Positions 11,331-44,501 are shown, counted from the stretch's first letter. The stretch is 64,000 bases of DNA from Nitrospiraceae bacterium (GCA_020356065.1 CP070632.1:265284-329283); one strand, 5' to 3'. A program made the numbers and translations. The notes: generated by a model from the letters alone, not told the origin.

Positions 11331-11561
11331 TTAATTATACGTATGTTTGATTATTACAACATCCTGCGCCTGAAGCCCACGGCTGCCCTGCACTACAGTA
11401 AATGTTACTGAATCGCCCTCTCTTATTGTACAATCACTTTCATGACACAGTACAGAACTGTAATGTACGTAAAGATCATCTTTACCTTTGCGGGCTATTA
11501 ACCCGTAGCCTTCAATTTCATCATACCACTTAATTACCCCTATTTCACGACCTATTATCAC
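11331..11561 (-). CDS. Cold-shock domain protein with a probable GTG start.
   Basis: GVIKWYDEIEGYGLI...DLYVHYSSV... matches the CspA RNP1/RNP2 pattern. The called ATG start adds about 27 non-homologous residues. An in-frame GTG lies 8 nt after an AGGA. Confidence 0.6.
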   Translation of the reverse strand: MIIGREIGVIKWYDEIEGYGLIARKGKDDLYVHYSSVLCHESDCTIREGDSVTFTVVQGSRGLQAQDVVIIKHTYN

Positions 11562-39016: not shown

Positions 39017-39910
39017 TCAGACAATTCTTCTGCTAATCACCGGTTCAAGAGATGATATGATGCGGCCATTATCAAATATCGTTACCCTGCCGGTGCTCTC
39101 TGAAACAACAACCGCAACCGCCTCTGTCTTCCGGGTCATTCCTGCAGCAGCCCTGTGACGGGATCCCAGTCCCCTGAGCTGCCTGGTAACTGCGCCTGCA
39201 GCGTCAAGGTGCCTTCCGGCAGCCTCGATCACCCCGGTGTCCGAAATTATAATCGCCCCGTCAAGCTGTGCAAACTCCTTTATGCTCTCAACGACTTCGG
39301 AACGAGTGATGATTCTTTCTTTTTTTGGATAACCCTTAAATGGATTAAATACAGCCTGGTGAGATGACTTAAGCACCTCTTCGGTATCCCCTATAATAAA
39401 TGTAGTTCCTATTGACTTCCCTTCTCTGCCCAGTGCACCTATATCAAGGGCAATATCTACCACAGCCATGACCGCATTCAGTGCCCGCTTTGATATGAGA
39501 AGACGCGGATCAAAAGGAAACTCTTCACTCCACGAAAGTGCGAGGTCATGGACCGTGACGGTATCGAGATGCCCCTTCCCCCATGGGCCCAGCACACATA
39601 CAACCCTGCTGTCAGGTTTTATCAGTCCCTGCATCACACCATGGAAAAAAGCATACTTTATCTGAGAGAACCTCGTCTGATTGCCTGACCAGCTTCTGAT
39701 TGCAGTAACTCCCGCTTTCTTAAGTTCAATGTCCCTTATACCTAATGTATGGGGGATTACAATGATAACGTTGTCATCTTTATACATGCCCGATTTTAAA
39801 AACCACCGGCATATCCGGGTGGTATTAAGAAAAAGAAAAATGCAGTTACTCTCTGTTTTCTCTGAAATATCAAGGGCGGATTCTATTATTACGCTTTTCT
39901 GATCTTTCAT
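39017..39910 (-). CDS. Diadenylate cyclase (DAC domain) with a roughly 130-aa non-membrane N-terminal domain.
   Basis: C-terminal half LDGAIIIS...GLGSRHRAAAGMTRKTEAVAVVVSESTGRVTIF, the DAC/DisA_N signature. No TM segments (unlike CdaA), and the DAC domain is C-terminal (unlike DisA). Confidence 0.65.
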   Translation of the reverse strand: MKDQKSVIIESALDISEKTESNCIFLFLNTTRICRWFLKSGMYKDDNVIIVIPHTLGIRDIELKKAGVTAIRSWSGNQTRFSQIKYAFFHGVMQGLIKPDSRVVCVLGPWGKGHLDTVTVHDLALSWSEEFPFDPRLLISKRALNAVMAVVDIALDIGALGREGKSIGTTFIIGDTEEVLKSSHQAVFNPFKGYPKKERIITRSEVVESIKEFAQLDGAIIISDTGVIEAAGRHLDAAGAVTRQLRGLGSRHRAAAGMTRKTEAVAVVVSESTGRVTIFDNGRIISSLEPVISRRIV

Positions 39911-40418: not shown

Positions 40419-40775
40419 CTAACGCCGGTATCCCCGTCTCGGTGAACTCCTGTAGCCTCTTCCATAGAACGTGCTGGTGTTTCTGTATCCATACCTGTGT
40501 GGTCTCGTATACTTGTATCCCCTGTACTCACCGGAATAGGGTTTAATATATCCGTATCCGTAATAGGGTTTACTATAACCGTAGTAGCCGCCAAAGCCAT
40601 TTAGATAGAATCCAAATCCTGAATAGCCATTACCAATTACTACATTGAATACTGGAGGGCCGTAGAATCCGGCATACACTGAGTAGCCAGTGTTTCGATA
40701 ATAGTCACCGGCATAAGATACGGATGTAAGCGCCAGGTTCGATATGACTGCTAATCCAATAAGAATTTTCTTCAT
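40419..40775 (-). CDS. Secreted Gly/Tyr-rich low-complexity protein.
   Basis: 118 aa. Signal peptide MKKILIGLAVISNLALTSVSYA, then GY/YGY repeats (GYSGFGFYLNGFGGYYGYSKPYYGYGYIKPY...). Confidence 0.45.
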   Translation of the reverse strand: MKKILIGLAVISNLALTSVSYAGDYYRNTGYSVYAGFYGPPVFNVVIGNGYSGFGFYLNGFGGYYGYSKPYYGYGYIKPYSGEYRGYKYTRPHRYGYRNTSTFYGRGYRSSPRRGYRR

Positions 40776-41183: not shown

Positions 41184-41930
41184 TTAATAAAACCTCTTCT
41201 GTCTTGATATTTTGCCGACTATCCACCCCACAAAAAATACACCTCCGCCGGCACCGAACCACCATATCATCTGTGAATGCTTAAGCTCATCATTCTCTTT
41301 CTGGAGTTGTTCAGTCTTAGTCTGTAATTCGATGTTTGACGCCTTAATATTGTCACGCTCATTCACAAGAAGAACAACATCTTTCGCACTATTAAGCAAA
41401 GCGTTATATTTTTCGCTCACATCTTTAAGATCTCTGGAAGTCTGTTCCGCCTTTCCCTGGCTTTCGGACGCGTTCTGCTGGAGATCCCGAATTTTACTGT
41501 TATGGTCTGATCTGGCTGTTTTGAGTTCATCTTGAAGTGATTCCTTATCTTTTTTGTACTGTTCGATCTTTGTGTTCAACCGGGCAATCTCTTTTTCCAG
41601 GCCCGCTATTATTACAGGTTTTGGTGTTTCCCGGGTTATATATTGTTTAAGTACCCAACCCTCGCTTCCACTTTCGGTTCTTACTTTCAGGTAATGTTCG
41701 CTTTCTTCGATAATCTCAAGAGGGGTACCTGCCTTAAGCGTTTTAATAATCTTGTATTCATTGCCCTTGCCTTCCCGCAACGTAATAATCAGTTGATCAG
41801 ACACATATTGTGTATCGGCGCAGACAATGCCAATTGAGACTGTAATAGGAAGAATCATCAATGAAAAGATGATTTCTTTAAACCGTATGATCCGATTGAT
41901 TCTCATATCAACCCTCCAATAAAAATGCAA
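41184..41930 (-). CDS. SH3b-coiled-coil-C-terminal-TM protein (TIGR04211-like).
   Basis: 248 aa. Signal/TM, bacterial SH3 region (YVSDQLIITLREGKGNEYKIIKTLKAGTPLEII...GWVLKQYI), long coiled coil and a terminal TM helix. Confidence 0.55.
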   Translation of the reverse strand: MHFYWRVDMRINRIIRFKEIIFSLMILPITVSIGIVCADTQYVSDQLIITLREGKGNEYKIIKTLKAGTPLEIIEESEHYLKVRTESGSEGWVLKQYITRETPKPVIIAGLEKEIARLNTKIEQYKKDKESLQDELKTARSDHNSKIRDLQQNASESQGKAEQTSRDLKDVSEKYNALLNSAKDVVLLVNERDNIKASNIELQTKTEQLQKENDELKHSQMIWWFGAGGGVFFVGWIVGKISRQKRFY

Positions 41931-42086
41931 CGCAAGACTGCTATAAAGCAGAAAAAATGATGATATTGATTATATATGATATTTCATAAATATCTCTGGT
42001 GTCATCCATGACAACTGTAGGAAAGCGGTAATATATGTGATACCATGTGATATATAATCGTTCAATATGCTTCTATAGGGTAAGAC

Positions 42087-42779
42087 ATGTCACACGGGAA
42101 CAAAGAAACGCATTACAGACATATATCAAAAAGCAGGCAATGGGCAAAAAATCAGCAGCTCTCTCATTCTGAACCATCAAAACCAAAACTCGAAATAGTC
42201 CTCAAATGCGATTCAGCAGGCAGTCTTGAGGCGGTTACACAAAGCATCCTGAAGATCGATCAGCCCGCAGTTGATATATCGATTATTCACGGAGAAATCG
42301 GCAATATCCATAAGTCAGACATTCTCATGGCCGACACCGGCAGTGGACTGATCATCGGCTTTCAGGTCGGAATGGAGCCCGGCTTCAGAAGTGAACTGAA
42401 GGCAGCAGGTATAGACGTTCGGCTTTATGATGTGATCTATAATCTAACGGAAGACATAAAAAACCTGGCTGAGAACATGGTCCCCCATTTTGTTGAAGAA
42501 AATATCATTGGCTCAGCCGTAGTGATAGCCCTTTTTAAAAGCGGCCGGAAAGATATAATTGCCGGATGTAAGATTACAAGCGGCTCTCTGGCACTCCACC
42601 AGCGTTACAGAATTATTTCCGCCATGGGCCCTGTTCATTCCGGGACCATAGAGTCAATGCACATTGAAGATCATACAGTGCAAAAAGCGATTAAGGGACA
42701 GGAAGTCGGTATAAAAATAAGAAATTTCAAGAATGTTAAGGTGGGTGATCTTCTGGAAACTTTCAAACCAGGAAAATAA
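42087..42779 (+). CDS. Stand-alone paralog of the translation initiation factor IF-2 C-terminal region (C1 plus C2 beta-barrel), with no G domain.
   Basis: 230 aa. LEIVLKCDSAGSLEAV...IIHGEIGNIHKSDILMADTGSGLIIGFQV...YDVIYNL.ED...IIGSAVV...AGCKITSGSL...VGDLLETF parallels the IF2 domain order block for block. Confidence 0.55.
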   Translation: MSHGNKETHYRHISKSRQWAKNQQLSHSEPSKPKLEIVLKCDSAGSLEAVTQSILKIDQPAVDISIIHGEIGNIHKSDILMADTGSGLIIGFQVGMEPGFRSELKAAGIDVRLYDVIYNLTEDIKNLAENMVPHFVEENIIGSAVVIALFKSGRKDIIAGCKITSGSLALHQRYRIISAMGPVHSGTIESMHIEDHTVQKAIKGQEVGIKIRNFKNVKVGDLLETFKPGK

Positions 42780-42827
42780 TCATATCGTCGGGGTATGTTT
42801 CAACATGCCCCGACTTCTGCAAATCCC

Positions 42828-42866
42828 TTACAAAATTGTATGAAAATTTTGTTACTTATCATACCT
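42828..42866. promoter_or_regulatory. Dyad/UAS-like motif TTACAAAATTGTA...CTTATCATAC.
   Basis: The TACA-N4-TGTA dyad recurs at 44683, 47740/47752 and 49428/49446. Here it is about 55-90 bp upstream of a sigma-54-type promoter. Confidence 0.5.
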
Positions 42867-43007: not shown

Positions 43008-44501
43008 ATGAAAAAGACACATTCACATCAGGAACTTTACCATGAGATTTTCGGGTCCATCCTCGACCGGACTGAAATGAATCCATATCTTTTACTCCAC
43101 ATCAGCAATTACAGGTCGGCACTTAAACAGGCAACTAAAATGATGGGCAACAGAGGATTTGACATGTACGGAGGCGAGGAGCTTGTGGAACGGGAAAAAA
43201 AGCGGGCCGCGAAATATATTGACAATGCTTATCGATACTGCTTTGTTCATATGTTTCCTTTTTTAAAGGAACAGCTTGCCAGACTCATGGACATTAAATC
43301 AACAAAATACAGCCAATATGAGCAGTGTCTTAGGGCAATAAAGACTATAGAGAAAATATTACATGATGAGAACTTTAAGAGAATCATGGAAGCAGATCCT
43401 CGTCACCTTCTTCTTCTTGCTTCATCAAAAAAATATCCGTACGTCTTTTCTGGTTATAAAGATGAGGGATTGACTGTCCCGGCGGAATGGCAGCAAATGG
43501 CATGCGCACTTCTCAAGGTAGCATATCTCATTAAATCAATCGAGGAAGACAGCCAGGACATTAATGATTATGCCCAGCTGGGACTGTTTCTGGAACTTGA
43601 GGGGCAGAGCCTTCATGATCTGTATAACTATGACTGGGCCAACCCGGCACACGTACCTGACAGTGATGCTGCAAAAAGGGCCTTTGTGAAGATCGCAACA
43701 TTCTTTCTTAAGCTCAAGGAATCTGTCAGATCAGTTGCAAATGGGAACTTTTTTATTTTTGACAGTGGTGACGGTGTTGAGATAGATATAATGGAAATTA
43801 AGTCCAGGTTAAAAAGCCCCGCTAGTATGTCGACAAAACTAGGCAAAGACGTTGAAGGTGAAGCCCATAATATACGCGATATTCTGGCTATAACTTTTAT
43901 AATAAGAAATATTGATGATACACTAAAGCTCATTCATGCCCTTCAGAAAAGAGGAGTAATACTGCAGGAAAACACCCTTTCGTCATCTCTGACCCAGACG
44001 CTTTTCGCCAACCCGGAAAGCATGTCACGGGCAGTAAAAAACCTTATCATTAGCCTATCGAAAAGCGAAGGAATGGACCATCCAGTTACTGACAGGGACT
44101 TACAGTTCAATACGCATGCATTTTATAAAGCCCTCAGCATGAATGCTGCTAAAAACCCGTATACAGCTGCAGGACATAAAAAATTACAGTGCAAAATCAA
44201 CTTTTCCGTTCCCATTCATCGTTCTTCTGTTACAAATGAAATTATGATTCCAGGCACCGCGGCTTATAAAGAAAGGGGCTTCCGGAAGATCATGACCGAA
44301 CAGCATTCACTTGCACTGGAGCTTCGCATATCAGATGAACAGAGCTGGATGGATTCAGAATATAAGCAGGACTCTCACCATGATGCATATAAATTCCGGC
44401 AGATGGTTTCGGTCATGAACAGGGTATTCAAGAAGAACTTCCAGTTCCCGGAATCAGATTTTAATGCTTTGAGAGAAGATCAGAAGAAACTCTTTTCATA
44501 A
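43008..44501 (+). CDS. Hypothetical 497-aa cytoplasmic protein of unknown function.
   Basis: Intact ORF with no recognisable motif. Embedded in the nitrogen cluster behind a sigma-54-type promoter plus dyad motif. Confidence 0.5.
   Translation: MKKTHSHQELYHEIFGSILDRTEMNPYLLLHISNYRSALKQATKMMGNRGFDMYGGEELVEREKKRAAKYIDNAYRYCFVHMFPFLKEQLARLMDIKSTKYSQYEQCLRAIKTIEKILHDENFKRIMEADPRHLLLLASSKKYPYVFSGYKDEGLTVPAEWQQMACALLKVAYLIKSIEEDSQDINDYAQLGLFLELEGQSLHDLYNYDWANPAHVPDSDAAKRAFVKIATFFLKLKESVRSVANGNFFIFDSGDGVEIDIMEIKSRLKSPASMSTKLGKDVEGEAHNIRDILAITFIIRNIDDTLKLIHALQKRGVILQENTLSSSLTQTLFANPESMSRAVKNLIISLSKSEGMDHPVTDRDLQFNTHAFYKALSMNAAKNPYTAAGHKKLQCKINFSVPIHRSSVTNEIMIPGTAAYKERGFRKIMTEQHSLALELRISDEQSWMDSEYKQDSHHDAYKFRQMVSVMNRVFKKNFQFPESDFNALREDQKKLFS

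Follow-up and report, generated by a model that had tools for sequence, protein, structure and literature searches.

Results

A free-standing homologue of the C-terminal half of IF2

The window, by which we mean the whole stretch of 64,000 nucleotides of Nitrospiraceae DNA that was analysed (CP070632.1:265284-329283), carries on its + strand a coding sequence for a protein of 230 aa (42087..42779), with an ATG start and a TAA stop, at the position where a sequence-only reading of the same DNA had placed it. That reading had described the product as a stand-alone paralog of the C-terminal half of IF2, with the block order of domains C1 and C2 and with the G domain missing, and this description was correct, Pfam and TIGR00487 being in agreement on the domain content. 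PF11987 (IF-2) matched residues 27-125 (E 2e-28; 99.1 bits vs. a cut-off of 27), PF14578 matched the C2 barrel just over its cut-off (24.8 vs. 23.8 bits), and the EF-Tu-type barrel models GTP_EFTU_D4 and D2 matched residues 153-223. The IF-2 equivalog model of NCBIfam, TIGR00487, gave 155.6 bits against a cut-off of 424.4, and only its positions 382-578 (of 587) were matched, indicating the domain order C1 followed by C2 without a G domain. GTP_EFTU, the Pfam model of the G domain, was absent from the paralog, whereas the resident infB has GTP_EFTU, EF-G_D2 and IF2_N. Of the features by which an InfB is recognised, the C1 domain (PF11987) and the C2 beta-barrel were both found in the paralog; a score above the whole-protein cut-off of TIGR00487 and the G domain/domain II were both lacking. 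Two strings quoted in the earlier reading were also located, AGCKITSGSL at residues 159-168 and VGDLLETF at residues 219-226.

Three regions can be distinguished in the protein. An N-terminal tail (residues 1-34; 42087..42188, + strand), with a net charge of +5 and 4 His, is predicted to be disordered (pLDDT <50). It is followed by the C1 domain, homologous to IF2 domain III (residues 35-131; 42189..42479, + strand; PF11987, PDB 1z9b), of the alpha/beta type and modelled with pLDDT >90, and by the C2 beta-barrel, homologous to IF2 domain IV (residues 138-228; 42498..42770, + strand; PF14578, PDB 1d1n). An AlphaFold2 model built with 37 relatives in the alignment reached a mean pLDDT of 87 and showed the same layout: residues 1-33 were disordered, residues 34-131 formed an alpha/beta domain and residues 138-228 a beta-barrel, the latter having pLDDT >90. 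The top Foldseek matches of this model in the PDB were IF2 chains from bacterial and mitochondrial initiation complexes. At the sequence level, residues 32-125 matched the C1 domain of Geobacillus IF2 (PDB 1z9b) and residues 137-226 matched C2 (PDB 1d1n, E 1e-11).

Relationship to the resident infB

The genome (3.17 Mb in one contig) contains exactly two matches to the paralog protein, its own ORF and the true infB. The latter encodes a protein of 771 aa in which IF2_N, GTP_EFTU, EF-G_D2, IF-2 and the C2 barrel are all present, and DUF503, rbfA, a DHH/DHHA1 gene and truB lie downstream of it; the infB-rbfA-truB operon is the usual arrangement for infB. In genome coordinates, the paralog maps at 307370-308059 and the true infB at about 849-851 kb, so that the paralog lies outside the nusA-infB-rbfA-truB region.

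The paralog was compared with residues 568-760 of the resident InfB, giving 34% identity with a single gap of one residue. Among genus-level orthologs with 83% and 78% amino acid identity, dN/dS for the paralog was 0.11-0.12 (dS 0.7-1.2), and for the C1-C2 part of infB, in the same genome pair and at 93% identity, it was 0.029. On these sequence comparisons, the non-synonymous evolution of the paralog is 3-4 times faster than that of the essential infB, yet it is clearly under purifying selection. The sequence-only reading had left room for a recently duplicated fragment, and had named near-identity to infB together with a broken upstream frame as the sign of it; what was found instead was 34% identity, an intact frame, a dN/dS of 0.11-0.12, an intact infB elsewhere in the genome and, in the search for stand-alone copies in relatives which the same reading had proposed, hundreds of intact orthologs. 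A recent duplication or a pseudogene is thus ruled out by the identity to infB and the dN/dS data. Both fmt and def were also found in the genome, and normal formylated initiation is therefore in place; a lack of formylation can be discarded as the rationale for the paralog.

Signals flanking the gene

The region upstream of the gene was aligned with three genus-level ortholog loci (L003, L014 and L015). A conserved block of 29 nt was detected in this genus alignment at 42018..42046 on the + strand (TAGGAAAG..GTAATAT.TGTGATA.CAT), and constitutes a candidate promoter or operator. Closer to the gene, a perfect -10 hexamer, TATAAT, can be read by eye at 42053..42058 (+ strand), 28 nt before the ATG; its position is occupied by TATAGA or TGTAGA in the relatives. 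No -35 element was seen at 16-18 nt from this hexamer, and a consensus sigma-70 scan called zero promoters on the + strand. The sigma-70 signals attributed to the gene in the earlier reading consequently stand as regards the TATAAT, visible by eye, but not as regards a complete promoter, as there is no usable -35 and the scan returned no + strand site. A sigma-54 promoter upstream of the paralog was not seen by eye either, in the window sequence or in the genus alignment.

A purine-rich, Shine-Dalgarno-like sequence (AGGGTAAG; 42077..42084, + strand) ends 2 nt before the ATG. Similar tracts (GGGAG, GGAGG or AGGGT) precede the M-x-H-K-H-K start in most of the 47 orthologous loci.

On the 3' side, a hairpin begins 8 nt past the stop codon, with 42787-42798 paired with 42803-42814 around a TTCA loop (+ strand). 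As RNA, its stem has 12 pairs, one of them G-U, with a folding energy of -22 kcal/mol and a z of -4.2. L003 and L014 also have the hairpin, with one compensatory change (T-A to C-G) and one change from G-U to G-C. The palindrome of 10 bp noticed earlier at this place is therefore real as a 12-pair RNA stem, but imperfect as DNA (9/10). No T-tract/U-tract accompanies the hairpin and the terminator scan made no call there; its probable role is to end or to stabilise the transcript.

A TACA-N4-TGTA dyad is present at 42829-42840, 3' of the hairpin and ahead of the downstream gene for a 497-aa protein. Dyads of this type occur 8 times in the window, against 0.85 expected (at 11451, 15059, 42829, 44683, 47739, 47752, 49430 and 49447).

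Because the hairpin follows the stop codon and is in turn followed by the dyad, the paralog gene is most likely monocistronic.

Genomic neighbourhood

In the window, the paralog is flanked upstream by a divergent gene for a membrane protein with SH3 and coiled-coil regions and downstream by a TIGR04552-like gene, an arrangement that is common to genus-level relatives only. The upstream gene (41184-41930, - strand) encodes 248 aa comprising a bacterial SH3 domain and a long coiled coil, with a hydrophobic segment at the C-terminus. The downstream one (43008-44501, + strand) encodes 497 aa with sub-threshold matches to TIGR04562 and TIGR04552 (64 and 59 bits for cut-offs of 140 and 125, respectively) and a weak match to the RelA_SpoT nucleotidyltransferase model (E 0.002). 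The 3' ends of tRNAs are the target of some RelA/SpoT-like enzymes. This gene was considered as an operon partner of the paralog and rejected, as the pairing is restricted to genus-level relatives and absent in L016, L017, L018 and L020; the hairpin and the TACA-N4-TGTA site that lie between both genes are also against it.

At other loci, the neighbours include restriction-modification and pyruvate:ferredoxin oxidoreductase genes, genes for Usp and MotAB (L017), HrpB with a transposase, and a sigma-54 activator with a PLP enzyme. When all the flanking ORFs of 75 loci were clustered, no conserved neighbour emerged, as every cluster was limited to 15 of them or fewer, and the largest one consisted of generic histidine-kinase/response-regulator proteins. 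Models of defence systems gave no match.

Other features of these regions were recorded. A synteny is shared by loci of a Desulfobulbales clade (L052, L056, L058, L059, L061, L081 and L086), in which an ORF of 126 aa and the genes for TPM-domain and RimK-like ATP-grasp proteins lie upstream of the paralog on the same strand; in an overlapping set of these loci, three ORFs of about 150-160 aa follow downstream, the first of them without a Pfam match. Since ribosomal protein S6 is modified by the RimK family, a link with the ribosome is possible for this synteny. In the window, the gene at 39017-39910 (- strand), which is conserved at the same position in L014 and L015, encodes 297 aa that include a DAC (c-di-AMP synthase) domain and match the DacZ_P sensor domain weakly. 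A predicted secreted protein of 118 aa without a family assignment, extremely rich in Gly and Tyr, with repeats of the GYxGYG type, is encoded at 40419-40775 (- strand), where its ORF overlaps a 109-aa ORF in another frame.

Size, range and phylogeny of the family

Judging from database matches, the paralog is one of a family with over 500 predicted free-standing members, of 220-260 aa. When 5.8 billion proteins were searched, 521 matches with sizes of 126-403 aa were returned; the best 120 of these 521 were all at least 50% identical and, except for one fragment of 160 aa, had 218-300 aa, and their named sources were Nitrospirota MAGs. With HMMER against 1.84 billion representatives, about 17 free-standing cluster representatives (50% identity; 232-281 aa) scored 145-203 bits, and full-length IF2 proteins appeared in the same search at 145 bits or below, a clear step under the free-standing ones. 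A profile of the family applied to 401 Nitrospirota genomes produced a similar separation, with at least 315 bits for intact members (348 bits for the window protein), 209 for one truncated copy and at most 196 for any IF2. In databases, the members are named only as "hypothetical protein" or "translation initiation factor IF-2", and a full-text search of the literature consulted found no paper describing such a family.

The paralog was carried by 10 of the 401 Nitrospirota genomes, all of the window's own class and distributed over four families; in the window's own taxonomic family, it was present in 3 of 10 genomes. Given this patchy occurrence, the gene is dispensable and could serve a niche function outside translation. 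A pattern scan over one genome per GTDB species located 71 species-level loci, a lower bound given that two peptide patterns were used. About half of them belong to Thermodesulfovibrionia, including Dissulfurispiraceae and Ca. Sulfobium, and the remaining carriers are Desulfobacterota (Desulfobulbaceae, Desulfurivibrio, Desulfobacteraceae and Syntrophobacteraceae); every source genome of these loci is a MAG or a SAG.

A tree was built from 35 diverse members together with 67 IF2 C-termini, the resident one included. The family occupied in it a single branch with an SH-aLRT support of 100, whose combined length of some 2.1 changes per site separated it from IF2, and it was not nested within the sampled Nitrospirota IF2s. 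In the tree of the family, the 35 Nitrospirota copies formed one clan (support 95) and the Desulfobacterota copies fell in several deep groups, the base being a polytomy when IF2 was used as the outgroup. This clan pattern fits a single transfer between Nitrospirota and Desulfobacterota, in either direction. As far as these trees and genome surveys indicate, the family is old, monophyletic and confined to anaerobic Thermodesulfovibrionia (Nitrospirota) and Desulfobacterota.

Three IF2-like proteins from metagenomes (P0136, P0155 and P0192) contained the C1 or C1-C2 module twice in tandem in nearly identical copies, which may be real internal duplications or assembly artefacts.

Remodelling of the fMet pocket

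IF2 occurs universally, and textbooks describe its C2 domain as the part that reads the formyl-methionyl end of the initiator tRNA; this domain reportedly carries the whole fMet-tRNA site. In the E. coli factor, the pocket for fMet-A76 is made up of S844, R846, R847, F848 and K849 in the beta4-beta5 loop, F804, F809, I812 and C815 in the beta1-beta2 loop, and E860, C861 and G862 in beta5, and fMet is cradled by R847 and F848 in the model of Sprink et al. (PMC4783127). The single change R847G strongly lowered the affinity for fMet-tRNA in gel shift and RNase protection assays (PMC8709274). In the 70S initiation complex, domain IV of IF2 also touches uL16, H89 and H71 (PMC4783127).

These positions were transferred to the paralog through a HMMER alignment that runs without gaps from query residue 20 to 227, E. 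coli numbers being 654 higher than those of the query, and 135 family members were compared with 97 IF2 C-termini column by column. Six of the 12 pocket residues are kept in the window protein (S844, F804, I812, C815, E860 and G862), the changes being R846 to H, R847 to I, F848 to E, K849 to D, F809 to K and C861 to V. Across the family, S190 (99%), F150 (99%), I158 (100%), C161 (99%) and G208 (99%) are kept. The replacements are largely shared as well: R846 is H in 88% of the family, R847 is I in 83% and F809 is K in 89%; F848 is replaced by E (68%) or G (23%) and C861 by V (57%) or A (37%); E860, retained in the window protein as E206, is Q (63%) or K (23%) in the family; and the position of K849 is variable. 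The resident infB retains K-R-F-K and E-C-G. Away from the pocket, query position 178 is R in 100% of IF2 and S in 90% of the family, and position 170 is R in IF2 and V or L in the family. The motifs FKSxRK(G), (F)RIISAMGP(VY), ES(L/M)HIE and GQEVGIKI/GQQVGIKI are invariant in the family, and SAMGP, S(M/L)HIE and FKSxRK are carried by the window protein. As the substituted positions are strongly conserved in the family, the pocket has been remodelled and has not decayed. The suggestion made earlier that such a module could bind initiator tRNA is weakened as far as an IF2-like mode is concerned, with H, I, E and V in place of R846, R847, F848 and C861.

The mean net charge of C2 was +4.4 in the family vs. 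-0.1 in IF2, and that of C1 was -6.6 vs. -4.2.

N- and C-terminal tails

The N-tail of the window protein begins MSHGNKETHYRHISKSRQW, with the M-x-H-x-x-K start that characterises the family, and has the charge and His content given above. In the family, this tail has a median length of 34 aa, a mean charge of +5.1 and about 3 His, and follows the motif M-[ST]-H-x-x-K...SKSR[EQ]W, frequently as M-[ST]-H-[KR]-H-K...SKSREW. According to the column comparison, residues 8-22 have no counterpart in IF2.

At the C-terminus, 125 of 135 relatives have a further tail of about 20 aa, in which a Trp is invariant and a Pro nearly so (W-x-P-x-G). It is missing only in the window's genus-level clade (10/135), whose members end in ...ETFKPG(K/R), the window protein in ...ETFKPGK, and no remnant of it was found on reading past the stop codon in the window. 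Comparison of these C-termini indicates that the W-x-P-x-G tail was lost in the window's genus. In the AlphaFold model of a tail-bearing relative (P0013), the tail (residues 241-252) has a pLDDT of about 94 and includes a short strand, and the pTM was 0.63 for this relative vs. 0.51 for the window protein; the models hint that the tail may fix the arrangement of C1 and C2. The window's genus also has a long branch in the family tree (0.43), and this branch together with the loss of the tail suggests that the function in this genus may have drifted from that in the rest of the family.

Discussion

Judged from sequence, the gene at 42087..42779 is a selected, free-standing and G-less C1-C2 paralog of IF2, in which the fMet cradle is rebuilt and both the barrel and the flexible N-tail are basic. 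It shares with bacterial IF2 (InfB) the same two domains in the same order, colinear and with the same fold, at 31-37% identity and with G160, C161, G166, G208, G220 and D221 conserved in both. In contrast to IF2, it has no N-terminal region, G domain, domain II or 30S-anchoring domains, its barrel is basic where that of IF2 is neutral, the residues cradling fMet are replaced and a basic, His-rich N-tail has been added. That this region can fold as an independent and stable unit is illustrated by the C and C-2 fragments of Geobacillus stearothermophilus IF2 (1z9b, 1d1n), although these are laboratory fragments with the full fMet-tRNA site, whereas the paralog is a natural gene in which the site is altered.

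Two further systems offer a comparison. Domains III-IV of aIF5B/eIF5B are a homologous but more distant pair (E 1e-8 to 1e-5) that binds non-formylated Met-tRNAi, from which it follows that a C2-type barrel can change its acyl specificity; to our knowledge, these domains are always located inside a GTPase, with domain IV on a rigid helix. The likeness to Pbp11 of Thermococcales (NF041207, PDB 7ANU) is a functional analogy, as this is also a free-standing translation-factor barrel, of the EF-Tu-domain-II type, with a flexible N-tail that is key to its binding of tRNA (PMC9540759). Unlike the paralog, Pbp11 is a single-domain archaeal protein of 11 kDa that binds the proteasome regulator PAN, and the paralog is not a member of its family (15.6 bits against NF041207, with a cut-off of 100).

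The explanation that we favour, with some reserve, is that the paralog is a neofunctionalised, GTP-independent and RNA-binding accessory or modulator of translation, and not a carrier of fMet-tRNA; its RNA-binding component is proposed from charge, homology and analogy. The protein would no longer recognise fMet-tRNAfMet in the way IF2 does, the framework for A76 being kept and the fMet cradle replaced, and its basic C2 barrel and basic, His-rich and flexible N-tail would bind RNA without GTP. The likeliest target would be a tRNA 3' end with a different acyl state, or none, and an alternative one would be the 50S site near H89/H71/uL16, the docking place of IF2 domain IV. The paralog would act in trans, tuning or assisting translation beside intact infB, fmt and def. 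Against this explanation, half of the IF2 pocket residues are kept, so that some residual binding of aminoacyl-A76, even with fMet, may persist; the family is patchy (10/401; 3/10); and the window's genus has no C-tail and a long branch.

It is conceivable, if doubtful, that the rebuilt C2 pocket reads a particular non-fMet tRNA 3' end, either of an aminoacyl-tRNA with a free alpha-amino group or of a deacylated CCA, the protein being then a GTP-independent factor by which sulfur-cycling anaerobes would have that tRNA diverted, protected or delivered at the ribosome; the acidic or small residue at the position of F848, together with the Ile at R847, would reverse the preference for the formyl group. 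A free module for fMet-tRNA or Met-tRNAi, similar to isolated IF2 C, whose role would be to hold initiator tRNA back, to protect it or to compete with IF2 in regulating initiation, seems unlikely. The protein is homologous to the domain that bears the entire fMet-tRNA site of IF2, keeps F150, I158, C161, S190 and G208 at 99-100% in the family and has E206 (= E860) in the window protein, but the cradle loop, SLKRFKDD in IF2, reads S(M/L)HIE in the family, whose members have Ile in place of R847 in 83% of cases, Val or Ala in place of C861 and Gln or Lys in place of E860 in 86%, and R847G is by itself enough to cut binding strongly (PMC8709274). Little probability is also given to a GTP-independent docking at the 50S site of IF2 domain IV, without any tRNA, by which the paralog would block or tune subunit joining or idle stressed ribosomes. 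The contacts described for IF2 domain IV (PMC4783127) and a barrel markedly more basic in the family than in IF2 would suit such a role, as would the stress and signalling genes in the neighbourhood (Usp in L017, two-component/sigma-54 activator genes in about 9-15 of 75 loci), but this neighbour signal is weak and comes from very common gene families, and the docking overlaps with the favoured role as an RNA-binding accessory rather than excluding it.

The chances are slim that the C1-C2 scaffold was recruited outside translation, as a protein-protein adaptor or as a metal-responsive factor using the His-rich tail, Cys41 and Cys161. About 3 His per tail, the gain of Cys41 by 84% of the family at a position that is Ala in IF2, and the confinement of the family to sulfur- and metal-cycling anaerobes would be in line with it; against it, there is no conserved partner gene and no match to defence models, and all the detectable homology is to translation factors. 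As to a decaying or dead remnant of a duplicated infB, or an ORF called in error, the missing G domain and the patchy distribution might be taken in its favour, but the dN/dS of 0.11-0.12, the intact frames in 71 of 71 species-level loci and in the genome matches, the invariant residues specific to the family, the confidently predicted fold and the conservation of the start context and of the hairpin leave it with hardly any credibility.

The pair of domains C1 and C2 is well known from IF2, and what is new here is its free-standing and re-specified architecture: a conserved protein made of C1 and C2 only shows that the module can be released from its GTPase and re-specified. The family provides a natural mutant series for how C2 discriminates between acyl groups. 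Its hosts are uncultured sulfate reducers and sulfur disproportionators, with no cultured carrier known. Should tRNA or the 50S subunit prove to be its target, the paralog would represent a new kind of trans-acting accessory of translation in these organisms, and if the reading of an altered acyl state were true, the family would be a natural case of an initiation-factor domain that has been re-specified and freed from its GTPase.
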